Part shown: positions 5,487-38,380 of the stretch, piece by piece
Position numbering within the stretch: the stretch's first letter is position 1
How the letters are laid out: each line of letters starts with the position of its first letter
Program-made: the position numbers and the translations under genes
Origin: Patescibacteria group bacterium
Lineage (GTDB): Bacteria; Patescibacteriota; Patescibacteriia; GWA2-46-9
Assembly: GCA_041675205.1 (NCBI GenBank)
Contig: JBAYUF010000002.1
Coordinates: forward strand, 1,731-65,730
Reading direction: 5' to 3'
DNA: 64,000 bases
Notes under the pieces: model-generated
What the model saw: the letters and a program-made list of their open reading frames with translations, nothing else
Database searches by the model: none
Told to the model about the DNA's origin: nothing

Positions 5487-5671
5487 GGCACAGTGCGTGT
5501 TGAAAAAATCGAATATACCTCTTGCCGTATCGTGTTTCAATGTACTAGTACGCTGAAACATAAAGTGTCACTTCGTTTTGCACTCTTTGCACTCTCTCGA
5601 ACCCAAATACTTTTAGGTTGACAGTCCTCGTGACTAGTGATTGTCTGTAGTAGTTTGAACATCGAAAACAG

Positions 5672-6148
5672 ATGCCCGCAATGCGGTGCGTCAGGGAGGC
5701 GACAATGACCGAACTGTTGCTACTGGCCACAATTTTCCTGGTTTCATACCTCGTTTTTCGTGCAGTCGCGCCCCGTTGGGCAGCGTGGGTGAAAAGCCAC
5801 AAGACTCGCATGAGAAAGGAGGTCGTGACCTGGGCGATGTCCACCTACGGCTGGGATCGCACCAGAGCTCGGAACTGGGTGAACGCGAAGTTCACCTTCT
5901 ACACCGACGGCGCCGAGTGCCAAGGTGGACTGAACCTCCGCAACAAGAAGACAGTTCACCACCTACCGAGATGCCTGGTACGGATTATCGGGAACCTCGA
6001 CATTCGAGGCACCGGCGTCAAGCACCCCCCGAAGGTGGCTGTTCTCGGCCGGCTTCGAGCAGACGGCGCCCTTCGGGTCGCCGGCAATTCCTCTCACCTG
6101 TGGAGGGGGAGGCGTTGCCGGACCCATCGACGGGTTGGACGAAGATGA
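5672..6148 (+). CDS. hypothetical protein in a GC-rich islet (N-terminal TM helix; frame and extent uncertain)
   Basis: GC- and GC3-rich ORF, unlike the flanking DNA. The N-terminal hydrophobic helix is MTELLLLATIFLVSYLVF. The C-terminal ~25 aa are Arg-rich and may come from a frame error. An alternative frame (5686..6198) is low-complexity. Confidence 0.3.
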   Translation: MPAMRCVREATMTELLLLATIFLVSYLVFRAVAPRWAAWVKSHKTRMRKEVVTWAMSTYGWDRTRARNWVNAKFTFYTDGAECQGGLNLRNKKTVHHLPRCLVRIIGNLDIRGTGVKHPPKVAVLGRLRADGALRVAGNSSHLWRGRRCRTHRRVGRR

Positions 6149-6151
6149 ACA

Positions 6152-6183
6152 GAGGCCCGGTGCGTATCGTCGCGCCGGGCCTC
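6152..6183. terminator. GC-rich hairpin between convergent genes (possible bidirectional terminator)
   Basis: GAGGCCCGGTGCG...CGCGCCGGGCCTC inverted repeat, between the end of the 5672 ORF and the end of the 6204..7358 minus-strand gene. Confidence 0.4.
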
Positions 6184-6203
6184 TCTCAAAACTGCTAGGC
6201 AGG

Positions 6204-7358
6204 TTATGTTAACTGGTGGAATAATTCATACCCGGCACTAAAAACAAAAAGCACAACCAGCACACTGGCGGCGATACGGTTCATTGGCAAAAAACGAAAA
6301 CGAGAAATTCCTAATCCGCGAATCTTTTGCAACATGAGAACAATGAAGATGCCATCAATGGCAATCGAGATACCTCCCAAAAATGCGATGAGACTAACAA
6401 AATTGTTTGCGCCAAAAAGAAACGGAACAACCGGTAAGGCTACCGCGAGGAACCAAGAAGCGGTCGGTGAAATTTTAAAATCAAACTCATAGATTTCTTT
6501 GAGGTCGTACCCAAGTGAAAGATACGATTTAAAAACAGCTACGAAACCAAGCGCTGCTCCGAATTGAACGACGGACGGACCAAGCACTGCCACCAAACCA
6601 CTTAGGGCATCAGTAGTAACAGCCCCGCCTGATGCCATTAACACACCCGCAACAAAAATAGCAGTGGTGATTAATGGCAGCACCACACCGGCAACTATGA
6701 GTAACCGTAACCGTCGACAATCATCAACCGTCCCACGAAAAAATTGATACGCGTCTGCGATGACGACGTACCCGGAAAGTGAAAAAAGAAACACCGCAAA
6801 AGCAAACAGTGGATCATTGCCAATCGCAGGGAGTTGAGCAATGTCGCCCCGCACTATGCCCGCTAACCCGATGCCAACAAACGAGGTCATGAGCGGCAGC
6901 GCCAACATGAAATTGATTTCGCTAATTTGTCGGGCACGACCAAGAAGGAGCAAGGCGCCGACAACAAAAAATGTAATTGACCAATACGTTGCTGCACCAC
7001 CAAAAATTTTACTTAGAAATATGCCGCCCAGAAGCACATAGCCAAGCAGCACGCCACTGACGAAGATGACTTCGTTTACTGCGGCTATCCACCCGGGTAC
7101 AGATCCAAGATAACGCCGCACATAACCTGGCAAACGGTGCTGTTCAATTGTGCTCGCCACAACTTCACCATAACTGAGGTGTATTGCCAGCACGGCCGCT
7201 GCCGCCAGCACAGCGAGGAGAGTAGACCATCCTACACCTGAGATAGTCACCGCGTAAGGTACGGCAAAAATACCTGCACCTATAGTAAGACCCGCAATCA
7301 TACCTGCGGCTGAGAAAAATGGAGGAGCAAAAAGTGTTGTGCGCATGTGATTAATCAA
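6204..7358 (-). CDS. amino acid permease (aromatic/hydroxy amino acid transporter-like, HAAAP/APC-fold)
   Basis: 384 aa with ~11 TM helices. The N-terminal GxG(I/L)F.VP motif (GAGIFAVPYAV) is typical of TyrP/Mtr/TnaB-type permeases. Confidence 0.6.
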   Translation of the reverse strand: MINHMRTTLFAPPFFSAAGMIAGLTIGAGIFAVPYAVTISGVGWSTLLAVLAAAAVLAIHLSYGEVVASTIEQHRLPGYVRRYLGSVPGWIAAVNEVIFVSGVLLGYVLLGGIFLSKIFGGAATYWSITFFVVGALLLLGRARQISEINFMLALPLMTSFVGIGLAGIVRGDIAQLPAIGNDPLFAFAVFLFSLSGYVVIADAYQFFRGTVDDCRRLRLLIVAGVVLPLITTAIFVAGVLMASGGAVTTDALSGLVAVLGPSVVQFGAALGFVAVFKSYLSLGYDLKEIYEFDFKISPTASWFLAVALPVVPFLFGANNFVSLIAFLGGISIAIDGIFIVLMLQKIRGLGISRFRFLPMNRIAASVLVVLFVFSAGYELFHQLT

Positions 7359-8799: not shown

Positions 8800-10251
8800 A
8801 TGGTACCAATGATACCTCTTGGCGCGGTCATTCAAGAGCTCAAGGAATCGAGCAACCGTCGTGGGCTCAACCTCCAACTGCCCTGTGACGGGCACTACCA
8901 GCCCGGGGATTTGCGCTGGGCCTTTGGATACGACATGCGCACCTCATGGTGGGCACTTGTGGAATTCCGCTGGCTCGAAACGTTGGCAGCAACCGGGCAG
9001 ATGCCGGTTATGACTGGCACGCTGCTGACGCCGAATCTTCTCCGACGTGTCTTCGAGAAGACGCATACGGCGCGGGTAACGAGGCGTGAACGGGGAACGC
9101 CAACGAACCCCGGAACAGGGCACGACGTTCTTGCCCTCTTGGCGTGCATGCGTCAAGCGCTGCCACGGGAACTGCACCAGTACCTGCACCTCGATCTGAC
9201 ATCGTACGACACCATTTCGACCGCTTACGCGTTGCAAATGCGCGAAGCGTTCGAGGAGACGTTCTACGTCAAAGCTGGTGAAGTTGACCAACGGTGGCGA
9301 AGCCTGATTGCAGAGTACGCCGAGGTGGTCCAAATTGGACGGACTCACCTCCAGTACGCCCTACCCATCACCGTGGGTTGCTGGCTCGCTCAACTGCGTA
9401 ACCGTTTCGCGGCAAGCGTTCGTGAAGCAAGGAAACTCAGTCGCGCGATTCCTGGGAAAGCGAGTGGTGCAGTAGGCACGAGTGCGGCGCTGCGACACCA
9501 CTTTGGAACGAACGACCTCGAAGTTGGGCTACTCAATTCCTTGCGGTTGCCGCGGCCGCTGCAGTCTACCCAGATCACACCGCCAGAAGCGTTCGTCAGA
9601 TTTCTGGGTGAAATTGTACTGACCTCTGGGTCACTGGCTAATCTGGGGGAAGACGTACGGCTGCTGCAGTCGTCTGACATCGGAGAATTGACGAGCATCG
9701 GCTCAACAAGCTCGACGATGGCACATAAGACTGGTAACCCGGTGGCAGCCGAGAATATGGCCGGCATGCACGGCAGTGTTCTTGGTGCGTACACCATGGT
9801 ACTCGGAACACTCGTAAGCGACCTGCAGCGAGACCTTCGCGGATCGAGCGTGATGCGCGGCTTCGGCGGCGTACTTTGCTACACCTACCAGCAGCTACTA
9901 ACCGCCGACCGGTTGCTGAAAAGTCTGCGGGTAAACGAGGCTCGCTGCACAGAGAATCTGCAGAAAGCCGGACCGTGTGTAACGGCCGAACTGCTTTACG
10001 TATCACTGCTGCATGCGGGCTTCGCGAATGCCCATACGCTCGTGAACAAGGTAATCGTTCCGGCGGCGCGGGCAACTGGTTGCGACTTGGTAGTTGCCAC
10101 AGACACGGTCATCAAGCAGACGCGAAACAGACGGCTTCGCGCCGCTTGGACTCTCGTTCCGGAGGAAACGAGAAGGCAAATCGCTTCGCCCAGAGACTAC
10201 CTTGGTGATGCAGTAAAGTTGGCGGTTCGAACTGCCCACGATCAACTGTAA
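8800..10251 (+). CDS. adenylosuccinate lyase family protein (class I fumarate-lyase fold; PurB-like)
   Basis: 483 aa and GC-rich. The fumarate-lyase signature is GSTSSTMAHKTGNPVAAEN (GSSxMPxKxNP). An N-terminal W..EF.WLETLAA block resembles PurB. Its base composition is clearly different from the neighbouring genes. Confidence 0.65.
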   Translation: MVPMIPLGAVIQELKESSNRRGLNLQLPCDGHYQPGDLRWAFGYDMRTSWWALVEFRWLETLAATGQMPVMTGTLLTPNLLRRVFEKTHTARVTRRERGTPTNPGTGHDVLALLACMRQALPRELHQYLHLDLTSYDTISTAYALQMREAFEETFYVKAGEVDQRWRSLIAEYAEVVQIGRTHLQYALPITVGCWLAQLRNRFAASVREARKLSRAIPGKASGAVGTSAALRHHFGTNDLEVGLLNSLRLPRPLQSTQITPPEAFVRFLGEIVLTSGSLANLGEDVRLLQSSDIGELTSIGSTSSTMAHKTGNPVAAENMAGMHGSVLGAYTMVLGTLVSDLQRDLRGSSVMRGFGGVLCYTYQQLLTADRLLKSLRVNEARCTENLQKAGPCVTAELLYVSLLHAGFANAHTLVNKVIVPAARATGCDLVVATDTVIKQTRNRRLRAAWTLVPEETRRQIASPRDYLGDAVKLAVRTAHDQL

Positions 10252-10264
10252 AGAAAGGGAGGAA

Positions 10265-10298
10265 CAAAGAGGGAAACGGCCGTCCGGACGAAAGTCTG
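10265..10298 (+). terminator. stem-loop AACGGCCGTCCGGA...TCTGGACGGCCGTT after the lyase gene
   Basis: Near-perfect 14-bp inverted repeat 14 bp after the stop. The tail is not strongly U-rich. Confidence 0.4.
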
Positions 10299-10327
10299 GA
10301 CGGCCGTTCTCATTACAGAAATTAATA

Positions 10328-10597
10328 CTAGCTATCTAAGAGAACGAAAACGATATCGGTTAACGCCTTGATCTTATGATACGTTCGAGCTGGAAATTCA
10401 ATTTTTGCAGGCCCTTGAATCTTATAGATACGATCTCCTGTTGTTACTTCAGCCATTCCTTTAAGTAGATAAATTAGCTCGGCTGCATTCTCAGAGTTGT
10501 CACCCGATACTGACTCTCTGTTTCTTAAAAAAATTTTGAGACCTGCCGCTTCATAAACCTTCCCTTTTAAATCATCACGGATGAGTTTCATTTCCAT
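10328..10597 (-). CDS. cupin-domain protein
   Basis: 89 aa. GDNSENAAELIYLLKGMAEVTTGDRIYKIQGP fits a small single-domain cupin beta-barrel. Confidence 0.5.
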   Translation of the reverse strand: MEMKLIRDDLKGKVYEAAGLKIFLRNRESVSGDNSENAAELIYLLKGMAEVTTGDRIYKIQGPAKIEFPARTYHKIKALTDIVFVLLDS

Positions 10598-10613
10598 AAT
10601 TAGGAAGACTATT

Positions 10614-10919
10614 TTACTTACCTTTAACCTTTACATTGACGCCACCAACTTTCTTATATGTTCGTTGCTTATTCTTTTTAATCTTTTTTACAATTTCTTT
10701 TTCTAAATCAACGTCTAGCATTTTAGATAGAGAAAGAAGATAAATTGCAACATCGGCCAACTCTTCACCTATATCAGGCAATTTTTTATGATAGGCACGG
10801 AACGCCTCGGCGAGCTCATCAAAGGTTAAACAAAATTCCAAATTAATATCATCGATATTGAACTTCTTTGTATTTTTATTTTCCCAAATCTCTTTTAGAA
10901 TTTTTTGGAAATCGATCAT
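10614..10919 (-). CDS. MazG-like nucleotide pyrophosphohydrolase-family small protein
   Basis: 101 aa. EFCLTFDELAEAFRAYHKK...EELADVAIYLLSLSKMLDVDL matches the all-alpha NTP-PPase (MazG/HisE-like) motif. Confidence 0.55.
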   Translation of the reverse strand: MIDFQKILKEIWENKNTKKFNIDDINLEFCLTFDELAEAFRAYHKKLPDIGEELADVAIYLLSLSKMLDVDLEKEIVKKIKKNKQRTYKKVGGVNVKVKGK

Positions 10920-10944
10920 AGAGGCTTTATAGAAATTGAATGTC

Positions 10945-11361
10945 TCAACACTTCAACTCAAAGGTCGGGAATCGGTCACAACTCTCGCCTCGTTCCCTCG
11001 ACTCCGCTGCTGCGGAGCTACTGACAATTCATGACATTCTGATCACATCAGAATGGGTGTTATTGTTGTCGGCTGCGACCCCGCCTCACGAGTTTATCCC
11101 GCACACAGTGAGGGGCTCCGGCTTTCGAATCCCTCACGCGAATGAAGCAGTTCATTCGCTCCCTTCCTCGTTCACAAAGTTCACTTCAAGGGAGGGTCGG
11201 GAATCGGTCACAACTCTCGTTCGCTTCCGCTCACTCGGTCGCGACCCCGCCTCACGGTCTTCGTCGTCAGCAATACTCCTCAGACATCGTTCCGGCTTTC
11301 GAATCCCTCACGCGAATGAAGCAGTTCATTCGCTCCCTTCCTTCGTTCACAAAGTTCACTT
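10945..11361. repeat. two imperfect tandem copies (~235 and ~170 bp) of a unit that starts with a tRNA-Ser 3'-end-like segment, immediately 3' of tRNA-Ser
   Basis: Shared blocks are GGTCGGGAATCGGTCACAACTCTCG (x2), CGACCCCGCCTCAC (x2) and a ~70-bp block CCGGCTTTCGAATCCCTCACGCGAATGAAGCAGTTCATTCGCTCCCTTCCT(T)CGTTCACAAAGTTCACTTC (x2). The last of these abuts the real tRNA end, GGAAGGGGAGGGATTCGAACCCTCG. The track ORFs 10940..11398 and 11142..11462 are translations of these repeats. Confidence 0.65.
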
Positions 11362-23020: not shown

Positions 23021-23058
23021 GAAGAGGGAACATGTGTCGTTCCCTCTTCATCTTTTTT
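23021..23058 (+). terminator. rho-independent terminator GAAGAGGGAAC-auguguc-GUUCCCUCUUC-UUUUUU
   Basis: 11-bp perfect stem followed by a T-run. Immediately precedes repeat A1. Confidence 0.7.
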
Positions 23059-23117
23059 AAAAAGTTTTGGAAACAAAAACACTCCCGTTGCACGGGGGAT
23101 GTGTATTGATTTTTAGC
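23050..23117 (+). repeat. island repeat A, copy 1 (approx. CTTTTTGAAAAGGTTTTGGAAACAAAAACAATCCCGTTGCACGGGATGTTTTGATTTTTAGCC)
   Basis: One of three direct copies (see 24994 and 27973). Each follows a GC-rich terminator hairpin, contains the small hairpin ATCCCG-TTGCA-CGGGAT, and ends in TTTTTAGCC. Confidence 0.8.
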
Positions 23118-23279
23118 CTTAGAGGGGCCACCAAGGGACGTGATACCCTACAACGGGTTATAAAATAAACCGACTCAAAGCCCCTAAATCCAACCCAGTT
23201 TGGGTCAGCAACATGCTTTGCCAGTGTCTAGCCTGATGGAAAGCTGTATACTTATAACAATATTAATGATTAGAATTTT

Positions 23280-23993: not shown

Positions 23994-24035
23994 TAAAAAA
24001 TACCTGGCGCTATGTCAGGTATTTTTTATTAGCCC
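23994..24035. terminator. hairpin AAAAATACCTGGCGCTATGTCAGGTATTTTTT, then TAGCCCTAG
   Basis: Stem TACCTG/CAGGTA with flanking A- and T-runs. The 9-mer TAGCCCTAG recurs at 29505. Confidence 0.55.
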
Positions 24036-24144
24036 TAGAAGGAAATAGTGAAGATTGGCACTCCGGAAGAGGACAGAACTATATTGACCGTCTATTAGAC
24101 CAAGAGTAAGGTGGCCGCACAACTGCAGAAGGAGGAACTGCTTT

Positions 24145-24950: not shown

Positions 24951-24999
24951 GAAGACCCGTGTGCATTGCAACTGCAGTGCCCGGGTCTTCGTTCTTTTT
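24951..24999 (+). terminator. terminator hairpin GAAGACCCG...CGGGTCTTC plus T-run, preceding repeat A2
   Basis: 9-bp stem with a 22-nt loop, then GTTCTTTTT. Confidence 0.55.
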
Positions 25000-25057
25000 G
25001 AAAAGGTTTTAAAAATAAAAACAATCCCGTTGCACGGGATGTTTTGATTTTTGTTAG
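24994..25057 (+). repeat. island repeat A, copy 2
   Basis: CTTTTTGAAAAGGTTTTAAAAATAAAAACAATCCCGTTGCACGGGATGTTTTGATTTTTGTTAG, near-identical to copies 1 and 3. Confidence 0.8.
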
Positions 25058-27930: not shown

Positions 27931-27978
27931 GAGAGACCCGCACCATATCACTGGTGTTCCGGGTCTCTTCTTCTTTTT
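27931..27978 (+). terminator. terminator hairpin GAGAGACCCG...CGGGTCTCTTC plus T-run, preceding repeat A3
   Basis: 10-bp stem, then TTCTTTTT. Confidence 0.55.
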
Positions 27979-28036
27979 GAAAAGGTTTTGGAAACAAAAA
28001 CAATCCCGTTGGACGGGATGTTTTGATTTTTAGCCC
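27973..28036 (+). repeat. island repeat A, copy 3
   Basis: CTTTTTGAAAAGGTTTTGGAAACAAAAACAATCCCGTTGGACGGGATGTTTTGATTTTTAGCCC, followed directly by repeat C1. Confidence 0.8.
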
Positions 28037-28105
28037 AAGTGGGTGCGCATTGGAACTCTATTGTTTTGGAGCTGAGAGAATGGTTGAGGTTTGGGGAGGA
28101 GATGA
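28031..28105 (+). repeat. island repeat C, copy 1 (TAGCCCAAGTGGGTGCGCATTGGAACTCTATTGTTTTGGAGCTGAGAGAATGGTTGAGGTTTGGGGAGGAGATG...)
   Basis: ~90% identical to 29503..29578. The track ORF 28023..28259 is probably a translation of this repeat. Confidence 0.7.
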
Positions 28106-28270
28106 AAGCCTTAGATTTTCAAAAGGAAGTGGTGCAAATTGGTACTCCGTAGCGGGAGTGGAACTAGGTCCTGTAAGGTGGAAAACTTTCTTGGCTTTAG
28201 TAAGGGAAGTATATTTTTCAATTACTGAAATTCCGCAATTATATAACCATGCCCCTTAAAACAGAATTAG

Positions 28271-29262: not shown

Positions 29263-29502
29263 TCCTTCGTCGCTAAGCTTCTCAGGACAAGCGGGGAATT
29301 CCGACGCCCTTCGTCGCCAGCAGTGCGACTCAGTGCTCTGTCCTGGGCAGCGCTTGATGCTTCGCCTGCTCACATCCATCGGCGCTCGCGGTATTCGTGA
29401 TTTCTTCCGAAATCACTCAGCGCTCGCTGCTGCCCGTTCGATTCCCACGCGGGGAAGCACATACCAAAAAAGCACCCCTCACAAGGAGAGATGCTTTTTT
29501 GG

Positions 29503-29578
29503 TAGCCCTAGTGGGTGCGCATTGGAACTCTATTGTTCTGGAGCTTAGAGAATGGTTGCGGTTTGGGGAAGATATGGA
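29503..29578 (+). repeat. island repeat C, copy 2 (TAGCCCTAGTGGGTGCGCATTGGAACTCTATTGTTCTGGAGCTTAGAGAATGGTTGCGGTTTGGGGAAGATATGG...)
   Basis: Direct repeat of 28031..28105. It is preceded by TGG, so the junction reads TGGTAGCCC, the same 9-mer that opens the forward image of the tRNA-Glu CCA end (TGGTAGCCCC at 38306-38315). Confidence 0.7.
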
Positions 29579-29641
29579 AAAGGATGCTTTGGCCAAGGAA
29601 ATGACCTTGGCGGCATAGTCCCTCATGGGAGTAGAACACCA

Positions 29642-30505
29642 CTATTCAGCAGGTGGAGCACTAGGTGATATATCTACCTCTTTATCGGACAGTGCTTTTT
29701 CGAATACACCGATAGCTTCATAAACGGCATCTAGCGTAACTATTTTTGACAGGCCTAGATGGCCTTCCACTAACTCAAGTATTTTATTCTCGGTCATAGC
29801 CGCTTCACTGTGCTTTGTTTGCCAGTAATAATGTGTGGCTATACCTATTAGGTAGGCACGATTTATTGATTTTGTCCCTTGGATAGAAACAACTTGTGGT
29901 TTGCAAAAAACTGGTCCGCCGCTATTACCCGGGAAAACTGGGGCATCAAGGTATAAGATTGAGTTTTTGGCAAGCTCGGGGTCTCGTCTCGCTATAATGC
30001 CCGATCTACAGATAGCGTAGTTTTTGTTTTCACCGCGCATTCCAAGTGGAAATCCAAGAAAAAAAATTTCATCACCAACAGATAAGCCCACCTCATCAAA
30101 TTGCTCAGGACGGAGTCCTGTTTCAGTGTCGAGGATACTGACAAAATCAATTTCATTTTCTTCAAGAGTTTCTTTGTCGAGTGGAATTACAGCAACATCT
30201 TTACCTGATTCAGGACAAAAAAAGCTCCTTAGACCTGGTGCGCGATGAGTCGGAATGGAAAATTTCTGTGCAATCGCTTCGCCGTTTTTATCAAATCTTA
30301 GGTACAATTTTTCAAACCCATCACGCTCAATATCAATTAGAACATGCGCGGCCGTTACTAAGAATAATTGACCAGAATAACGTTCGCCCTCTTTATTATA
30401 TACTCTGAATAATAAAAATCCCGTGCCGCGGCATTTCGCCTCTTGGCCCTCGATAACTTCAATTGAAACGACTGATTTCAAAAAGGCTGGTGGAAGCAAG
30501 GCCAT
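29642..30505 (-). CDS. trypsin-like (S1/chymotrypsin fold) serine protease
   Basis: 287 aa. The catalytic triad context is LVTAAHVLID (His), DVAVIPLD (Asp) and FPGNSGGPVF (Ser). No signal peptide is obvious. Confidence 0.75.
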   Translation of the reverse strand: MALLPPAFLKSVVSIEVIEGQEAKCRGTGFLLFRVYNKEGERYSGQLFLVTAAHVLIDIERDGFEKLYLRFDKNGEAIAQKFSIPTHRAPGLRSFFCPESGKDVAVIPLDKETLEENEIDFVSILDTETGLRPEQFDEVGLSVGDEIFFLGFPLGMRGENKNYAICRSGIIARRDPELAKNSILYLDAPVFPGNSGGPVFCKPQVVSIQGTKSINRAYLIGIATHYYWQTKHSEAAMTENKILELVEGHLGLSKIVTLDAVYEAIGVFEKALSDKEVDISPSAPPAE

Positions 30506-30638
30506 ATCAAATTCTATCGTTTTATTAGTGTAGGGCTAACTCAAGAGACCAAACAACATCTTTCCAACTATAAAAACCACAATCAAACCCACTCAATTAG
30601 CTTGTCTTTAGAAGTAACAAAAGGCACAGAACATTCTA

Positions 30639-31232
30639 CTAGCCAAAAGGAGGAAGTACTACTCTGTTTTCAATTTTTTTCACCCACTGATCAGCCAGCA
30701 TTTTTATCCTAAGTACCTCTTGATTCAAGACAGCTAAATCAAAGTCTTCGTTTACAAAAGTGAAGTGCATCGTTCTAGGGTCATAGTGACTAACAAAAAC
30801 TATATTATTTATTTGAAACGCTAATCGGGAACCAATATTATATGTCCCGATATTAGTATCGGGACCATATTTGCCAATCCAGCCCTTTAGCCGCTCATCA
30901 TAATGTTCCAGATGATTACGGAATTTTCGTTTATGGATTAGAGATTTTTTATCGACTCCCAACACTACTCCAATTGAGAAGACATCCTTCTGGACAAAAA
31001 AACGATGCCACCACCTTGAAAGGATATTGTTCCGTTGTTCTGTTGCTTTCAGCATTTTTGAAACCATTGCACAGTGGGACAAAAAGGAATGAATGGCAAT
31101 AAAAATTATGTCATTACTAGCCTGGTGCGGCTTTTGCAAATACGAATACATGATCCCCGCAAATTTTGCTTGTGTTGAAATCTCCCTTATAGACATCTCT
31201 ATCCAAAGATCTTTGGAAGTTTTTTTTATCAT
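30639..31232 (-). CDS. hypothetical protein (defence-cassette member)
   Basis: 197 aa, co-directional and tightly spaced with the neighbouring genes. No family recognised. Confidence 0.4.
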   Translation of the reverse strand: MIKKTSKDLWIEMSIREISTQAKFAGIMYSYLQKPHQASNDIIFIAIHSFLSHCAMVSKMLKATEQRNNILSRWWHRFFVQKDVFSIGVVLGVDKKSLIHKRKFRNHLEHYDERLKGWIGKYGPDTNIGTYNIGSRLAFQINNIVFVSHYDPRTMHFTFVNEDFDLAVLNQEVLRIKMLADQWVKKIENRVVLPPFG

Positions 31233-31241
31233 ACCAAAATA

Positions 31242-32039
31242 TCACCGTAACATTTTTTGATTTATATAGTGCAATAAAGAACGCGCACTATTTATAACAA
31301 GCATAGCTTCCGCCTCTGCGAGCAAGCTATTGTTGGGGTGAGCGAGACTGGATTGATTGCGAAACGTATTCATTGCATCAAGTATTGATGCGAAAGATTT
31401 CAAAACTCGATCCACGTCATGTGATCGTGTAACTTCAGAAGTAAAAGCTGGATGCTTTGTTCTCAATATTTTGAAAAATTCCGTAATACTCTTGTTATCC
31501 GTTTCCGCTACTCCCATTTCTTCACATAAATTTTTCATGTAGCCATGCAATGCTGTGTGGGCCCTATCCATGGCGCTGATCGGACCATTTGTGGCCAAGA
31601 GATTCTCGGCATCAAGCAGTGCACGATCAACAACAGCCGTCGTATTATGAGGTTTTGGTGTTGAAACTGGTGCAGGAACATCAACTAATTCTGGATAAAT
31701 ACAAATAAAACGAATAAAAGGCCCCCCGACCTCACTTATACAATAAGCAACATGCATGAAAGCCTCCTCATCTTGCTGGGTTGTTTTCAGGGCACCCATT
31801 TCTTCATAATCATCCAGTGGTACCGTTGCATGCAAAACATAAAAGTCATCGCCAAAATAATTAGAACCTTCACTTATCGAAAACGGTATCAAGGATAACA
31901 ATTCTGCTGCACGAGACTGTCCTCGACGAAGCAACAAGCGGGCAGCATTCGTGGCGATACGTTGCCATCGTTCCTCGGGCATAGGTTCACCGACAAGTTC
32001 AAATCCAGATGCACCACTGCCTTGGTATAAAAGTATCAT
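31242..32039 (-). CDS. hypothetical protein with a C-terminal Abi_C-like (abortive-infection C-terminal) motif
   Basis: 265 aa. The C-terminal ...FRNQSSLAHPNNSLLAEAEAMLVINSARSLLHYI resembles the conserved R-N-x3-AH(G/P) core of the Abi_C domain. Low certainty. Confidence 0.35.
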   Translation of the reverse strand: MILLYQGSGASGFELVGEPMPEERWQRIATNAARLLLRRGQSRAAELLSLIPFSISEGSNYFGDDFYVLHATVPLDDYEEMGALKTTQQDEEAFMHVAYCISEVGGPFIRFICIYPELVDVPAPVSTPKPHNTTAVVDRALLDAENLLATNGPISAMDRAHTALHGYMKNLCEEMGVAETDNKSITEFFKILRTKHPAFTSEVTRSHDVDRVLKSFASILDAMNTFRNQSSLAHPNNSLLAEAEAMLVINSARSLLHYINQKMLR

Positions 32040-32064
32040 CGCAGTTTATGTGCAAAAGAATTTT

Positions 32065-33282
32065 CTACTCACTAATAGCAGAAAGTATCCGTTGGCGCTT
32101 GATAAATCTATCCAGTAACGGGATACCGAGGCGATACTTACCATACCGAGTTCGGTAAATAAGGCCGTCAATAACGAGCTTTGCAAATATTTGACTTGCG
32201 TGGCTTGAACTAATAGGGCTCTGGAGCAGCCTTCCCCATTGCTCAACTACCTCCTTTACTGTGAATTCATCTTGGCAGTTGTCTAATGTAGACATAACAG
32301 ACAGTAATTCTCGTTCCCTGTCGGTGGCGTTATTCCAGCGCGCTGCAAAGAAGTCTATATCAAGCTTGGCTATTATTTCTTCAAGGGGAACGCTCGGATC
32401 ATTCCTTCCTTGTGTCATCTGGCTCAAAAAACTATTGAATGCTTCCCGACAAAGAAACTGAATGAAATAAGGATAACCACCCGACTCTTTCACAATTATT
32501 CCTACTGACGTATCGCCAAATGTTACGGGACAGTTTTCCCTTTGTATCGGTTTTAGAACCGCTTCTCTGCTCTCTGTGTCAGAGAGACCATGAAGCTCTG
32601 TCACCTCAAACATGCGCTCCGCGTAAGTCCTCGCATCAACCAAACGCTGCTGAAGCGTTGGAAGACCAACGAGAACAAGTAGTAAGGGATAACCTCTTTT
32701 TTGTAACGATTGAAAAACCTCTAAAAGTACTGACAACGGATACTGTCCTTCTTTCCCTTGATCACTCATTTTTTGTGCCTCATCGTAAGCGATTACTATT
32801 CCTTTTACTTGAGGGCTAGCTTTTTTTACATTATTCCAAACAAATTCGAGTGTACTTCGAAGTTTGTCTGACACCAGCCCTGGCTGACCATTGTAATATT
32901 CAAGCAATGCAGCGTAGTCTAGGGAAACTTCGTCTGTTTCCCCGCCAAAACCCATCTTGTCCTTTTGTCCCTTGAGTTGCGATGTAATAATCGAGAGGTC
33001 AGTCAATATTCTTGTAGCAATGGTGTTTTCTGAAACACTAGCCGACTCAGAAAGATCGGTACCTGCCCAAAGCCACTGATTCACAAGAGCGACGGGTTTG
33101 AAGCTATCGACGAGAACGGTCTTGCCCGTACCACGTAGGCCAGTCAGAATCATGTTTTTCATAATGACCTCCTGCTGGAGCAAGTTTATGAATGCTTGTT
33201 TTTCAGGGTCACGACCAGCCAAGTAAGGAGGCGGTTGACCAGCGCCGGGGCGGAAGGGGTTCAGAAAAGGTTCCTGTGTCAT
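32065..33282 (-). CDS. P-loop NTPase, AAA/Arch_ATPase (DUF234-type) family
   Basis: Walker A ILTGLRGTGKTVL and Walker B IVIAYDEAQ. The N-terminal FLNPFRPGAGQPPPYLAGRDPE and a C-terminal winged-helix-like tail are typical of ORC/Cdc6-like standalone ATPases. The start was chosen at MTQEPF (33282). The track ORF runs to 33342. Confidence 0.6.
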   Translation of the reverse strand: MTQEPFLNPFRPGAGQPPPYLAGRDPEKQAFINLLQQEVIMKNMILTGLRGTGKTVLVDSFKPVALVNQWLWAGTDLSESASVSENTIATRILTDLSIITSQLKGQKDKMGFGGETDEVSLDYAALLEYYNGQPGLVSDKLRSTLEFVWNNVKKASPQVKGIVIAYDEAQKMSDQGKEGQYPLSVLLEVFQSLQKRGYPLLLVLVGLPTLQQRLVDARTYAERMFEVTELHGLSDTESREAVLKPIQRENCPVTFGDTSVGIIVKESGGYPYFIQFLCREAFNSFLSQMTQGRNDPSVPLEEIIAKLDIDFFAARWNNATDRERELLSVMSTLDNCQDEFTVKEVVEQWGRLLQSPISSSHASQIFAKLVIDGLIYRTRYGKYRLGIPLLDRFIKRQRILSAISE

Positions 33283-33603
33283 AGAATGAGTAACTTTTAT
33301 AATATTACTAATTCTAGATGTTTCACTAATTCTTGTCAACAAACTAAATGTTTGTAGAACTTATACTTGGCCAATTTTATAGAAATAGGCCATAATGATT
33401 GCGACAATTGAATTGCCTAAACCACTGGGTAACCAGCGGCATGGCAAGAAATCCCACAACGATACTGAACCCCGTGTTCAGCGACTCGTTGTGGGTCATA
33501 TCCCGAAAGGGGTATGGGGCAGAAAGGCTCAGCTGGCGCGGGGCTCTGTGTTGCACCCCAAGCGCCTTGCTACCTACAAGTCGCTTATTTTTATTTTATT
33601 CAC

Positions 33604-34633: not shown

Positions 34634-35008
34634 ATGAAGCGTAGAGCAGCTATTGCAACCGTCCTGGTCATAATGGCACCGACGCTTGCTTGGGCACACC
34701 CAGGACGCACTGATGCCAACGGGTGCCATACCAACAAGAAAACGAGCGAGTATCACTGCCACGGGGCTCCAGCAACAACATCTGCACGTACGGATGCGCC
34801 AGTTGCCGCTCGAGAAACCGCGCGAGCTACGTCGCCAAGCGTTGAACCAAGCGCTGCCGTTTGTAATTTTGACCTCTATAACTGCAGTGATTTTGCTAGT
34901 GGAGAAAAGGCGCAAGCAACCTTTTTAGTCTGCGGAGGAATAAATAAAGACATTCATCAATTAGACAAAGACAATGACGGCCTTGCTTGCGAAGAACTGA
35001 GCAACTAA
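34634..35008 (+). CDS. secreted Excalibur calcium-binding domain protein
   Basis: Signal peptide MKRRAAIATVLVIMAPTLAWA. The C-terminal DKDNDGLACE is the Excalibur DxDxDGxxCE motif. Cys-rich. Confidence 0.7.
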   Translation: MKRRAAIATVLVIMAPTLAWAHPGRTDANGCHTNKKTSEYHCHGAPATTSARTDAPVAARETARATSPSVEPSAAVCNFDLYNCSDFASGEKAQATFLVCGGINKDIHQLDKDNDGLACEELSN

Positions 35009-35066
35009 AGAACTAGGAATTACGTAATCTTTTTGTGCGAATGTCAAGTAAAAACCGGACACAACC

Positions 35067-35164
35067 GGACAGTATCTGACACTTTTACAACATTTTGACT
35101 CCATATCCGACAGTACCCGACACTATTAGGATATTCTGATTAGAAATTAGACAGTAATAGACAC
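35067..35164 (+). promoter_or_regulatory. three phased iteron-like direct repeats RGACAGTA-N2-3-GACAC (35067, 35108, 35148), ~40 bp apart, upstream of 35187
   Basis: GGACAGTATCTGACAC, CGACAGTACCCGACAC and AGACAGTAATAGACAC. There are additional CCGGACA half-sites at 35055 and 35065. Confidence 0.5.
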
Positions 35165-35186
35165 AATTACCGGGAATTGCCGAATT

Positions 35187-36368
35187 GTGACGCCCAAACT
35201 TCTAAGTCAAACAAGAACAATGGTAAAAGGTGACGCCGCTAAATCATTAGAGAATCTACCTTACTTCGAAGATTACGAAGTCTATGCTCTTTGGAAGTAT
35301 CTCAACGGAAACCTAACGGGTCGACCGGTTTTTCAATTAGTCGACTTATTGGGACCAGGAAACAGTTACCTATCACTGTACGTACTACTACACAACCTAA
35401 ACCAGTGGGGCATAACACTTGAAAATCCAACTTTTGATCGTAAGGGGCATAGATGGTTTTATAAAAAACATCGCACCAAAAAAGAGAGCGAGGCGAAAAA
35501 CTCGCTGAATAACATCTACAAAAATAAGTTCAACTTGGTTGACATAGTGGCCGCGTTTCCTGTTGCTCAGCAACAACGTATGCTCGCTTGGATAGAGTTC
35601 AAAAAAGAGCTGAGCGACAGCAACCGTCAAATCTTGAACTCATTCTTAGGGCGCTATATGGATCTGTTTGTACACGATCAACTAAAGTTGCGGGAAAAAA
35701 GCTTCTACACTTTTGAGCGGCAGATAGAGAAGCTTCTAATGCTACTTCGTGAACGATCTAAAGATTTTGGCAAAGAATTTGTTTTTGAGTACGCACCTCC
35801 AAGAGACGAAGATGGTCTTTCTATCTACTCTCCTTTTCTATTTACTCATTCCATGGTCGCGGCATCGACACTCGGCCTGGTGAAAGTGACGGAAGCCTGG
35901 GTACAAGATGAAGCACCGCCTAAAAGGCAGCGCCACAGCTATAAAATTAGACTTACTATTACTGAAGTAGGCAGTGAGAAGATAAATGAACTAGCTGAGA
36001 AGGTGGTTGGCAAAAGGACTATTATGAAAAACAGCGACGGACTATTTACATATCGAGGGGCACCGCTAAACGTAACCCTTGGTACTAATTATGCACGCGC
36101 TTTTGATATTCTTCTGTCGGACTTCCCTCAGGGAGGTTTTGTTCCTTATGACGTTCTAGAAAATCTATTGATACAAAACGGTTTTGAGCCGAGCAAGAAC
36201 AACGAACAACGCAACAAGAGAATCAATAACTTGCTTAGTGTAGACCAGGGGTTTTTCCGATATGCAAAGTTGAACAACAAAAAGCTTCCTAACAGTGCAG
36301 CGGATGGTAAGTCTATTATCCATATACGCCGAGGAAAGGGTATAGAATTTTACAACCCAGAGATCTAA
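35187..36368 (+). CDS. hypothetical protein (possible replication-initiator/DNA-binding protein served by the upstream iterons)
   Basis: 393 aa with no recognisable catalytic motif. Its position directly downstream of the iterons and upstream of the recombinase suggests a Rep-like role. This is inference. Confidence 0.3.
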   Translation: MTPKLLSQTRTMVKGDAAKSLENLPYFEDYEVYALWKYLNGNLTGRPVFQLVDLLGPGNSYLSLYVLLHNLNQWGITLENPTFDRKGHRWFYKKHRTKKESEAKNSLNNIYKNKFNLVDIVAAFPVAQQQRMLAWIEFKKELSDSNRQILNSFLGRYMDLFVHDQLKLREKSFYTFERQIEKLLMLLRERSKDFGKEFVFEYAPPRDEDGLSIYSPFLFTHSMVAASTLGLVKVTEAWVQDEAPPKRQRHSYKIRLTITEVGSEKINELAEKVVGKRTIMKNSDGLFTYRGAPLNVTLGTNYARAFDILLSDFPQGGFVPYDVLENLLIQNGFEPSKNNEQRNKRINNLLSVDQGFFRYAKLNNKKLPNSAADGKSIIHIRRGKGIEFYNPEI

Positions 36369-36396
36369 AACCATTCCACTTGGTTCCGACTGGGGA

Positions 36397-36424
36397 CAGC
36401 TCAAAACTGAGCTGTTTTTTTATT
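36397..36424 (+). terminator. rho-independent terminator CAGCUCA-aaacu-UGAGCUG-UUUUUUUAUUU
   Basis: 7-bp stem plus a long U-run, 29 bp after the stop. Confidence 0.65.
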
Positions 36425-36819
36425 TGTTTACTTGGTTTTTGAAGACAAAAAAGAAACTGAAAACTAAACCAAGTGGAAGTATTACAAGGTAGGGTAAGGA
36501 TAGGCTTGCAATAACTTTTTTCAGGAAATTTATTGCAACCAGGTGACGTCACACTTATTCAGCCGCTGGCGCGTCACCTCGCTGGCGGCTGATGTGTTTT
36601 GAGATGCTTACTCTAGAACAATGCCGAAAAATTGATCCCTCTCTTGCTGATATAACAGACGAAGAGTTGTTACGCATTAGGGAAAAACTACAAGCTGTTG
36701 CGCTGCTTGCGTTTGAGGATTTTGTAAAAGAAAACGGACTAAAATCAGGACCATAATAAGAGTTTGAAATATCCCGCTTGGGTACTCACTAATTCTTATT
36801 TTCAGGGTAATGTATAAAT

Positions 36820-38346
36820 ATGAGCATGAATACAGTAAAAACTGGGATAATTTACGTTAGAGTTTCCTCTAAAGATCAGGTTGAAAACACGAGTCTAGAA
36901 TCGCAAGAAAAAGCCTGTATAGAATACGCTGAACGAAACGCCATTACGATTATTGAGCCAGCGTTCGTCGAGAAAGGTGAGTCTGCAAAAAGCGCCAACC
37001 GAACTGAATTCCAAAAGGCTATTTCACGATGCGCTGATAAGAAACTACCAATCAAGTACTTCGTTGTTTATAAACTTGATCGTTTCGCTCGAAACCAAGA
37101 TGATCATGTCACTGTAAGAGCCATTCTCAGACGCTACGGTACTGAACTTCGTTCTGTTACGGAACCAATCGACGAAAGTTCACTGGGGCGAGCCATGGAA
37201 GGAATGATTTCTGTTTTTGCAGAGCTAGATAACAATATGCGAACCGAACGGACTAGGGGCGGGATGCTAGCTCGAATACGACAGGGTATTTGGTGTTGGC
37301 AAGCTCCGCTGGGCTACTACCGCCCATACAAGAAAGCTAACATTACGCCTGATGAAAAAATAGCACTCTACATAAGGATCTTGTTCGAAGAATACGCTAA
37401 AGGAACATACACTTACGAGAGGTTGGCAAGATTTATTAGTGATCGCGGATTACGAACAAAGGAGGGTAAGAAACCTTGGCCACAGCTCATGGTAAAAATT
37501 TTGAAAAACGAAGTTTACTGTGGAGTAATAGTCGGACTCGGAGAGAGAATCGATGGTGCATTTGAACCGATTGTTTCAAGAGAGCTTTTTGAACAATGCA
37601 GAAAAATAAGACTTGGCATTGCAAATGGCTGTCGTCGTTCACCAGAAAACCCTCTGTTCCCACTACGACGGATTGTGGTTTGTACCAAATGCAAGCAACC
37701 ACTCACCGGCAGCAGATCTCGGGGGAAACTCGGGAAATACTACCATTACTATCATCATCGTAAACAAGGTTGCGTGGCCGCAAAAAGTATCCCCAATATC
37801 GAACTAGAAAAGATTTTTCTGAATTATTTTCAAAGGATCGCACCCAATGATCGTTTTGAAAAGTTATTCAAAGCCATCATTACTGATACTTGGAAGAGTA
37901 GTTATAAAAAGCTAGACGAAAATAATTCTCGGATTCAAAAACAGATAGAAGTATTGGCTACTGATCGTCAACGTATTTTTGAGTTCCACCAGAATGGTAA
38001 ATACTCCGATGAAGAATTTCAAGAACAGAAACGGCTTATAAACCAACGCATCGAACAAAAGAGGATACTACTAGATGACAGCCGGATTGAAGAATTCGAT
38101 ATGGAGCTAGCCCTCAATTATTGTTTTGAGTATTTGAGAGCCATTCCAGAGAAATGGGGAAAAACTAGCGATGTATCTAGAAAAATGCGCTTACGGGGTT
38201 TGATGGTCAAAGGATTTATATATTTCGACGGCGAACGAATTGAAACCCTCGATATGACAGAGATTCACAGGGTAAAACAAGAGTACGGTGGTGAAAAATA
38301 CCATTTGGTAGCCCCACGGGGAATCGAACCCCGATTTCCGCCGTGA
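36820..38346 (+). CDS. large serine recombinase (phage-integrase/resolvase-type serine recombinase)
   Basis: 508 aa. The N-terminal resolvase catalytic domain is IYVRVSSKDQ...(catalytic Ser)...VYKLDRFARN. Then comes a recombinase domain, a zinc-ribbon (CTKCKQP...C) and a coiled-coil. The last 41 nt overlap the tRNA-Glu gene on the opposite strand. Confidence 0.85.
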   Translation: MSMNTVKTGIIYVRVSSKDQVENTSLESQEKACIEYAERNAITIIEPAFVEKGESAKSANRTEFQKAISRCADKKLPIKYFVVYKLDRFARNQDDHVTVRAILRRYGTELRSVTEPIDESSLGRAMEGMISVFAELDNNMRTERTRGGMLARIRQGIWCWQAPLGYYRPYKKANITPDEKIALYIRILFEEYAKGTYTYERLARFISDRGLRTKEGKKPWPQLMVKILKNEVYCGVIVGLGERIDGAFEPIVSRELFEQCRKIRLGIANGCRRSPENPLFPLRRIVVCTKCKQPLTGSRSRGKLGKYYHYYHHRKQGCVAAKSIPNIELEKIFLNYFQRIAPNDRFEKLFKAIITDTWKSSYKKLDENNSRIQKQIEVLATDRQRIFEFHQNGKYSDEEFQEQKRLINQRIEQKRILLDDSRIEEFDMELALNYCFEYLRAIPEKWGKTSDVSRKMRLRGLMVKGFIYFDGERIETLDMTEIHRVKQEYGGEKYHLVAPRGIEPRFPP

Positions 38347-38380
38347 AAGGGCAGCGTCCTAACCGTTAGACGATGAGGCC
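38306..38380 (-). tRNA. tRNA-Glu (anticodon TTC), CCA encoded
   Basis: The reverse complement is GGCCTCATCGTCTAACGGTTAGGACGCTGCCCTTTCACGGCGGAAATCGGGGTTCGATTCCCCGTGGGGCTACCA. It folds as a cloverleaf (acceptor stem with two G:U pairs), with anticodon loop CUUUCAC and TpsiC loop TTCGATT. Confidence 0.8.

Follow-up and report, generated by a model that had tools for sequence, protein, structure and literature searches.

A candidate immunity-like winged-helix regulator beside a phased repeat array in an integrative island of a Patescibacteria chromosome

We analysed a 64,000-bp stretch of DNA from a Patescibacteria group bacterium (assembly GCA_041675205.1, contig JBAYUF010000002.1, positions 1,731 to 65,730; hereafter the window). 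Between ~25.5 and 38.4 kb of the window, GC content is 0.37-0.50 (mostly 0.37-0.46), compared with ~0.50 on both flanks. In the right part of this region an array of direct repeats (35068-35164) is followed on the plus strand by a gene for a protein of 382 or 393 aa, a conserved non-coding block, a structured leader, a small ORF and the gene of a large serine recombinase (LSR), which runs into a tRNA-Glu(UUC) gene on the minus strand (38306-38380); the tRNA gene marks the right boundary of the island, where GC content jumps. A sequence-only reading had taken this set of features for the replication and integration module of a mobile element, with a replication initiator and an iteron origin. 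The integrative part of that claim stood, because the GC content (0.40-0.45, against ~0.50 in the flanks) and the LSR at a tRNA gene support the placement of the module in a foreign, integrative-type island, whereas the initiator and its origin were not supported by our analysis. In their place we propose, at about even chances, an immunity-like regulator with operator sites.

The repeat array, the adjacent gene and the recombinase

The three phased direct repeats described in the sequence-only reading were confirmed. The motif GACAGTA-N3-GACAC occurs as 15-bp cores at 35068-35082, 35109-35123 and 35150-35164, with starts exactly 41 and 41 bp apart, and in a repeat search of the window the copies extended to 21 nt at 76-81% identity. 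In the 64 kb, the pattern GACAGTANNNGACAC with ≤1 mismatch matched at these three sites only, and three matches were reached in 0 of 100 dinucleotide shuffles. Each unit is composed of two GACA(G/C) pentamers with 10 bp between their starts. The additional CCGGACA half-sites reported upstream are present as well, in the form of a 10-bp-period tandem, AACCGGACAC/AACCGGACAG, at the upstream edge of the array (35053-35072, plus strand), which supplies extra GGACA half-sites; an extra GGACAC stands at 35058, upstream of the three cores. The seven same-strand GACA(C/G) pentamers (35058, 35068, 35078, 35109, 35119, 35150 and 35160) are all in helical phase (0/10/9.75 mod 10.25, for a helical repeat of 10.25 bp) and face one side of the DNA. 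The maximum number of pentamers per 110-bp segment was ≤5 in 300 first-order Markov simulations of the 64-kb window, compared with the 7 observed, and the three cores are much better conserved than their spacers. The repeats are real, phased and far beyond chance. The cores lie 23-56 bp 5' of the start codon (GTG 35187 or ATG 35220), and their units, when reverse-complemented, read GTGTC-N5-CTGTC.

The ORF directly after the repeats (35187-36368, plus strand) encodes 393 aa from its GTG and is identical to the NCBI hypothetical protein WC052_01420 (Patescibacteria group bacterium), for which NCBI places the start at ATG 35220, giving 382 aa. The earlier description of this protein as belonging to an unknown family was borne out, as scans against Pfam, PHROG, NCBIfam and PADLOC returned no matches. 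Searched exhaustively with HMMER, 1.8 billion cluster representatives yielded 247 relatives, which are confined to Patescibacteria-like metagenome contigs and reveal two independent modules. The N-module (residues ~12-270) is present in ~50 proteins that are 340-730 aa long, while the C-module (residues ~270-393) forms the C-terminus of many proteins of 130-300 aa. In the form that starts at ATG 35220, the N-module kept in the ~50 metagenomic homologues covers residues 1-267 (35220-36020, plus strand) and the C-module residues ~270-382 (36027-36368, plus strand), the latter being a predicted OmpR/PhoB-type winged helix of a family marked by 'RGKG..FYNP'.

AlphaFold2 models built with the relatives as alignment reached a pLDDT of 90.5 for the full protein and 91.6 for residues 1-267. 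The N-module was modelled as winged-helix subdomains with a helical bundle; the whole fold had no strong match in the PDB, its structural matches were generic winged helices only, with no enzyme fold among them, and a Foldseek search against viral structures found nothing at E ≤ 0.001. The C-module model conforms to the OmpR/PhoB fold, with an N-terminal beta-sheet, three helices and a C-terminal beta-hairpin wing. PDB profile searches brought up no replication initiator and no match for the FYNP domain, and for another C-domain variant only a marginal match to AdeR (E 0.07). A protein homologue search with the C-domain alone as query and scans of viral contigs for the N-module and the C-module returned no matches. 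In the homologue P0027, Pfam Trans_reg_C (PF00486) passes C-terminal to the shared N-module, at the position of the C-module, and most other N-module homologues end in a third, different C-terminal domain. Because the modules occur independently, because P0027 carries Trans_reg_C and because the C-termini differ elsewhere, the family consists of a conserved N-module combined with interchangeable winged-helix DNA-binding modules. The N-module is without a characterised relative and is probably used for oligomerisation or partner contact. Judged from its model, the 393-aa protein is a predicted DNA-binding protein without a recognisable catalytic domain.

Directly after the stop codon comes a conserved non-coding block (36374-36478, plus strand). 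In the window it comprises CTTGG-N5-GACTG-GGGACAG tandem half-sites, an intrinsic terminator (36392-36419), inverted CAAG repeats and a perfect 12-nt inverted repeat (36374-36385 / 36467-36478), and it has GGACAG in common with the first units of the upstream array. The same block follows the C-module genes of the related loci L013-L017 and L019, with the consensus CTTGG-N5-[G/A]CT[T/G]G-GGACAG running into an intrinsic terminator and then inverted CAAG repeats; in an alignment of the window, L013, L014 and L015 it has 35 invariant columns. Since the block is retained whichever gene follows, an LSR module or a Prim-Pol, it moves together with the winged-helix gene, in the way that operator and repressor stay together in phage immunity regions. 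The terminator that had been noted earlier is part of this block, and the palindrome-rich leader is also present. This structured leader (36503-36592, plus strand; fold z-score -4.6) lies 5' of the recombinase operon and forms two strong hairpins, the second of which (36559-36592) is terminator-like; its palindrome arms are 36536-36548/36572-36584 and 36559-36571/36580-36592. The operon opens with a small ORF of 54 aa (36592-36756, plus strand), whose conserved part begins with MLTLEQCRKIDP at 36604 and which is a candidate directionality or regulatory factor.

The recombinase (508 aa; 36820-38346, plus strand) matches Resolvase (PF00239, E 6e-31), Recombinase (PF07508) and Zn_ribbon_recom (PF13408), as well as the integrase family phrog_95 (E 1e-78), and its N-terminus contains YVRVSSKDQ. 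With its serine-integrase domains and catalytic serine motif, it is an intact large serine recombinase. It had been described as a serine recombinase abutting tRNA-Glu; the three Pfam domains uphold the recombinase, but the two genes overlap rather than abut, the last 41 nt of the LSR being antisense to the 3' half of tRNA-Glu, with the LSR stop codon in the anticodon loop. The ORFs immediately to the right of tRNA-Glu are, as we take them from their sequence, the host housekeeping genes tsaD and tsaE. No replicase was found in the island by Pfam and PHROG scans, and tblastn with the G2P Reps of sister loci detected no remnant in the window. As this copy is without a replicase, we take the island to be integrative (possibly defective) and probably not an autonomous replicon.

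Gene order and repeats at related loci

Genomic contexts were recovered for 8 independent N-module loci besides the window (9 apart from one duplicate pair) and for 5 C-module loci. The N-module gene is followed in L011 by a G2P/Phage_CRI rolling-circle Rep (378 aa; assigned by Pfam) and an LSR overlapping tRNA-Asn, in L002/L003/L008 by a 55-aa ORF and a G2P Rep (by Pfam in L002/L008), and in L012 by a G2P Rep with E 2.9e-4 and 21.1 bits, just below the Pfam cut-off of 21.7. In L009 it precedes a protein of 379 aa, which shares 49% identity with the L011 Rep and is assigned as a Rep by its 46-53% identity to the Reps of sister loci, and a DNA methylase; in L007 it precedes an ORF starting MLDTVILNIP, which read by eye is Rep-like and apparently of the G2P type. 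The order in L001 is a 50-aa ORF, a 134-aa protein with weak replication-initiator PHROG matches, a terminase-small-like HTH protein, a Sie-like protein and an LSR overlapping tRNA-Asn, while L010 has an HTH_17 Xis and a tyrosine integrase abutting tRNA-Gly, with no Rep; the contig of L004 is too short for neighbours. Among the C-module loci, the gene is followed in L013 by a DUF5659 protein (Pfam), a small ORF and an LSR overlapping tRNA-Gln, in L014 by a DUF5659-like ORF (by eye), small ORFs and an LSR overlapping tRNA-Gly, and in L019 by a DUF5659 protein and small ORFs before the contig ends. A Prim-Pol/AAA_25 primase-helicase follows in L016/L017, L016 also having an HTH_17 gene, and in L015 small ORFs without Pfam matches extend to the end of the contig. 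Overall, the gene is the first of a replication/integration module in which the replicase is a separate, recognisable protein.

At nearly every N-module locus, just 3' of the stop codon of the gene, there is a tandem direct repeat whose period is exactly 10 bp. It is of the ACCCTCT type, twice, in L001, L007, L011 and L012, CCCTCCC twice in L010, GTCTTAAG twice in L002 and CGACTTGAGC twice in L009. The repeat was equalled in ≤8 of 500 shuffles in L002, L007, L009, L011 and L012, and it is weaker in L001 (47/500) and L010 (19/500). The five loci with CCCTC repeats share a 'KFYKEG' C-domain at 43-61% identity, and the C-termini of L002, L009 and the window protein are unrelated. L010 retains its downstream repeat despite having no Rep. 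The FYNP-type C-domain in turn goes with the CTTGG...GGACAG/terminator block (window, L013-L017 and L019). Candidate 10-bp-period sites, all of them predicted, adjoin the gene in the window and in homologous loci and co-vary with the domain variant, and the repeat motif follows the C-terminal domain variant and not the type of replicase.

An A-rich motif, TGTAAAGTAA.GT.AAG.A, is conserved directly 5' of the ATG of the N-module homologue in five loci (L004 195-223, L007 880-899, L009 7980-8000, L011 1657-1679 and L001 836-865); the counterpart in the window, CTAAGTCAAACAAGAACAATG at 35202-35222, is weaker. One possible reading of this motif is a -10-like element ahead of a very short leader.

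Operator sites and rival explanations

OmpR/PhoB winged-helix domains bind direct repeats 10-11 bp apart as head-to-tail dimers, and the PhoB box is CTGTCAT-N4-CTGTCAY. Given this tandem mode of binding and the GTGTC-N5-CTGTC that the array units form on the opposite strand, the C-module on paired half-sites is the most economical model for the array. In this model the product of the 382/393-aa gene would act as the leading DNA-binding regulator in the island's maintenance/integration module. Head-to-tail pairs of its C-module winged helix would occupy the GACA(G/C) half-sites spaced by 10 bp, with GACAGTATCTGACAC and CACTTGGTTCCGACTGGGGACAG as candidate targets for two C-modules bound as a head-to-tail dimer, and the three composite sites at 35068-35164 would be the operator array. 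The three pairs, placed on one face at intervals of 41 bp (four helical turns), may be bound cooperatively, perhaps via the N-module, and such binding would set the transcription of the protein's own gene (autoregulation). The same protein would also bind the CTTGG/GGACAG block that brackets the terminator just 3' of its gene and would in this way control the entry of transcription into the downstream operon, which consists of the small ORF and the LSR here and of replicase and integrase in sister elements. To an immunity-like regulator of this kind, with its operator sites in an integrative island of a Patescibacteria chromosome, we assign a probability of roughly one half.

Several observations weigh against this model. 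The upstream array is absent at every homologous locus examined and is unique to the window. The CTTGG half-site of the block differs from the GACAG/GACAC of the array, so that a different domain or a different protein may be what recognises the array. A search of 34900-36900 brought up no sigma-70-like promoter. The C-module has no Pfam PF00486 match, and hhalign against the corresponding region of P0027 gave a probability of 0.3. Some origin-binding proteins, too, are laid out as a constant N-module joined to exchangeable DNA-binding modules. Finally, every binding step of the model, including the pairing of the protein with the array, is inferred.

The origin claimed in the sequence-only reading is the rival that survives best. 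It holds that the 393-aa protein initiates theta-type replication, by a Rep_3-like logic, at an iteron origin formed by the array, and that the excised island replicates as a plasmid. Three phased direct repeats do stand immediately 5' of a gene for a multi-winged-helix protein, iteron initiators are also built from winged helices, and the modular layout of the family would suit an origin-binding protein. The island encodes no other replicase, and in sister elements the gene family is located in the replication module; however, these elements carry their own replicases directly after the homologue, and their repeats track the winged-helix variant and not the replicase type. The suggested check for Rep_3, RepA or primase relationship by remote homology and structure found DNA-binding winged helices instead: Pfam, PHROG and NCBIfam contain no Rep_3 or related replication-initiator signature, RepA or primase that matches the protein, and its model does not give a two-winged-helix initiator fold superimposable on RepE/Pi. 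The repeat consensus, which was to be sought elsewhere, occurs within the 64 kb at the three array sites only, and a scan of viral contigs for the two-unit pattern returned no matches. No DnaA box (TTATCCACA-like, ≤1 mismatch) is present between 34254 and 36315, and hence none at the array, and the segment 35000-35499, checked as a possible AT-rich unwinding element, has a GC content of 0.40, similar to the remaining island. In addition, iterons are usually contiguous units of 17-22 bp, and a 41-bp spacing with 15-bp cores is atypical of them. The absence of the array from homologous loci, which had been named in advance as speaking against an origin, is what we found. We regard this explanation as unlikely, and the operator model as more likely than a replication initiator with its origin.

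Slightly lower still we place the possibility that the repeats are bound by some other factor, of the host or of the island, or that they are a decaying, functionless 41-bp tandem duplication, the adjacent gene being unrelated to them in either case. The lack of the array at any related locus and the difference between its half-site and the block that co-varies with the C-module are in keeping with this, and the spacers of the 41-bp units retain the partial similarity expected of a tandem duplication, as seen in the 21-nt copies. The 15-bp cores are nevertheless far better conserved than the spacers, which points to selection on the cores, all seven half-sites keep their strand and helical phase, and the GGACAG of the array recurs in the conserved block after the gene.

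It seems improbable that the array is a centromere-like or architectural site, in which the winged-helix protein would coat the phased repeats for segregation of a circle or as a scaffold for excision. Phasing on the same face every 41 bp would favour wrapping of DNA or cooperative filaments, and the C-module family is found close to the LSR in the window, L013 and L014. Yet the island has no ParA/ParM/TubZ partner, the array lies 3.1 kb from the att-proximal end, directionality factors of serine integrases normally bind the integrase and not arrays of DNA sites, and the N-module family also stands beside a tyrosine integrase with its own Xis (L010). For this last reason, the 393-aa protein is also unlikely to be a recombination directionality factor.

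Element ends, cargo, LOOT RNA and known systems

The 3' end of the LSR ORF overlaps the 3' end of an opposite-strand tRNA gene in 8/8 cases examined, by 10-61 nt. The LSR and tRNA coordinates are 36820-38346 / 38306-38380 in the window, 4384-5907 / 5866-5941 in L001, 10001-11518 / 11490-11564 in L005, 9402-10967 / 10933-11007 in L006, 4521-5990 / 5976-6050 in L011, 8230-9747 / 9738-9809 in L014 and, for the two pairs in L013, 7575-9380 / 9320-9391 and 9924-11180 / 9861-9933. The overlapped tRNAs are Glu, Asn, Gln or Gly, the LSRs are as little as 28% identical to each other, and the LSR stop codon falls inside the anticodon loop in the window and in L001. This pattern points to a clade of serine integrases in Patescibacteria that would target tRNA genes, with an attP overlapping the end of int. 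In L001, a GIY-YIG ORF (5932-6186, minus strand) lies to the right of the intact tRNA-Asn and is followed by a partial copy of the 5' half of tRNA-Asn (6192-6268), which has identical stretches of 23 nt and 16 nt with a 38-nt insertion between them and ends in the anticodon loop; it may reflect either another insertion at this tRNA position or the footprint of a homing endonuclease there. Small ORFs resembling that of the window occur in L005 (9804-10031) and L006 (~9210-9350), and probably in L013 (6794-7020) and L014. These helical small ORFs lie immediately 5' of the LSRs and contain MLTLEQCRKIDP... in the window and MLSLKKLKEIDP... in L005, with a looser resemblance in L006 and L013; a terminator-like hairpin precedes the small ORF in the window and L005.

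A tRNA remnant marking the other element end was found in none of the eight cases. In the window, a search for a tRNA-Glu remnant that would mark attL gave no copy with ≤3 mismatches over 59 nt and only weak matches of 11-18 nt. A weak candidate for the left end is 29436-29515 (plus strand), where TTTGGTAGCCCTAGTGGG (29498-29515) matches the tRNA-Glu 3' end (38304-38321) in direct orientation at 15/18 positions and the 11-mer GTTCGATTCCC (29436-29446) repeats the T-loop region in inverted orientation, neither match being individually significant. Two att models built on these matches were rejected, as neither regenerates an intact tRNA. An intergenic repeat family of 50-80 nt, made up of a terminator-like hairpin CCCGTTGCACGGG and a T-run, occurs at 23044-23126, 24018-24042, 24971-25052, 27950-28107 and 29490-29579; four copies continue with TTTTTAGCCC.AG.GGG, a sequence similar to the tRNA-Glu 3' end in antisense (TTTGGTAGCCCCACGGGG). 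Stepwise accretion of islands at tRNA-Glu could have left the repeats behind as serial att scars; alternatively, they may belong to an unrelated repeat element.

At the far end of the island, an operon on the minus strand (29642-33342) resembles an anti-phage defence cluster. Its genes encode a Trypsin_2 protease (PADLOC candidate PDC-S45, E 5e-21), a 197-aa unknown protein, an Abi_C/AbiJ-like protein and an AAA_16/AAA_22 ATPase (phrog_6841); the cargo of the L005 element is a different ATPase (AAA_15/AAA_21). The AAA_16 ATPase (32065-33342) was considered as an Orc1/Cdc6-like initiator and rejected, since it has no PDB sequence match and shares its operon with the AbiJ-like and protease genes. 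The island also contains a LOOT RNA (Rfam RF03000; 33414-33530, plus strand) scoring 88.1 bits against a gathering threshold of 46.4. LOOT RNA was found in 6/9 related element loci at 77-94 bits, on the minus strand in L014 (5805-5928), L013 (5331-5448), L011 (1494-1615) and L006 (8917-9032) and on the plus strand in L005 (8659-8779) and L010 (7192-7312). In the loci whose neighbours were checked, it lies just 5' of a gene for a small membrane, zinc-ribbon or Sie-like protein, and it and the winged-helix regulator gene are divergently oriented in L011, L013 and L014. LOOT is an orphan sRNA motif for which we found no functional literature; it is apparently a hallmark RNA of integrative elements of this kind, and its recurrence here seems to be the first genomic context found for this orphan Rfam family.

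Taken jointly, these features tentatively outline a coherent and previously undescribed family of Patescibacteria integrative elements, which we consider possible rather than probable. Its members would have (i) an integrase at a tRNA gene, mostly an LSR whose ORF ends antisense inside the tRNA; (ii) a lead gene for a multi-winged-helix protein of a new family, whose OmpR-like modules are exchangeable and each have their own 10-bp tandem sites, the two together serving as a cassette for immunity-like control or for origin selection; and (iii) the orphan LOOT RNA, carried by the element. In the boldest version, the N-module would be a new type of origin-selector that recruits the replicase of the element (G2P, Prim-Pol) to sites chosen by the C-module. 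The mobile elements of Patescibacteria (Candidate Phyla Radiation, CPR) are almost uncharted. In this locus and the related ones a single module recurs, made up of a winged-helix regulator and its matching tandem sites, a replicase in some cases and a tRNA-associated integrase, and it could help to detect such islands and set their limits; the cargo here is defence-like. The co-variation of domain variant and 10-bp repeat provides a ready set of candidate protein-operator pairs, and for serine integrases, a family in use as genome-engineering tools, the targeting of tRNA genes would extend the range of known targets.

Among known systems, OmpR/PhoB with the pho box resembles the window in the 10-bp tandem geometry of the half-sites and in the fold class of the C-module. 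However, the window protein has no receiver domain and no Pfam Trans_reg_C match, it is fused to a novel N-module of 267 residues, its sites form three pairs 41 bp apart and not a contiguous box, and it belongs to a mobile element and not to a two-component system. The iteron plasmids (RepE of F, Pi of R6K, RepA of pPS10) share with the window the direct repeats, of which at least three adjoin the gene of a winged-helix protein, and autoregulation through the same repeats is plausible in the window; the spacing of the repeats is atypical of them.

Serine recombinases at tRNA genes are not unprecedented; phiRSM-type filamentous prophages and LSR-bearing tycheposons provide examples. The former are described, in the work cited as reference 22 in PMC7192596 (Askora 2011), as combining a G2P Rep with a serine recombinase that integrates at tRNA 3' ends; LSRs are carried by a minority of tycheposons (27/937 elements; bioRxiv 10.1101/2020.12.28.424599), and inoviruses have been reported in CPR (PMC6813254). 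In L011, too, a Phage_CRI/G2P Rep occurs together with a serine recombinase located at a tRNA gene, and the LSR of the window lies on tRNA-Glu. In contrast to phiRSM, the window LSR has 508 aa with Recombinase and zinc-ribbon domains and is not small and resolvase-like, its ORF runs antisense into the tRNA, the cargo is defence-like (AbiJ-like protein, PDC-S45 protease), and no inovirus morphogenesis genes were seen in the window.

In staphylococcal pathogenicity islands (SaPI), Str/Stl stand ahead of xis-pri-rep. In pSAM2, Pra/KorSA stand ahead of repSA-xis-int at a tRNA gene (AICE review, PMC2440964). The sister elements likewise consist of a regulator, a replicase (rolling-circle Rep or primase-helicase) and an integrase beside a tRNA, and the window island is small, with its cargo at the far end. 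They differ in that the window protein has no sequence or fold kinship to Pra, KorSA, Stl or Str, in that the recombinase is an LSR and not a tyrosine recombinase, in that the window copy is without a replicase and in that the hosts are Patescibacteria. By analogy of gene order, these regulators of rep-xis-int modules, Pra/KorSA of pSAM2 and Str/Stl of SaPI, may be regarded as the closest functional analogues of the 382/393-aa protein.

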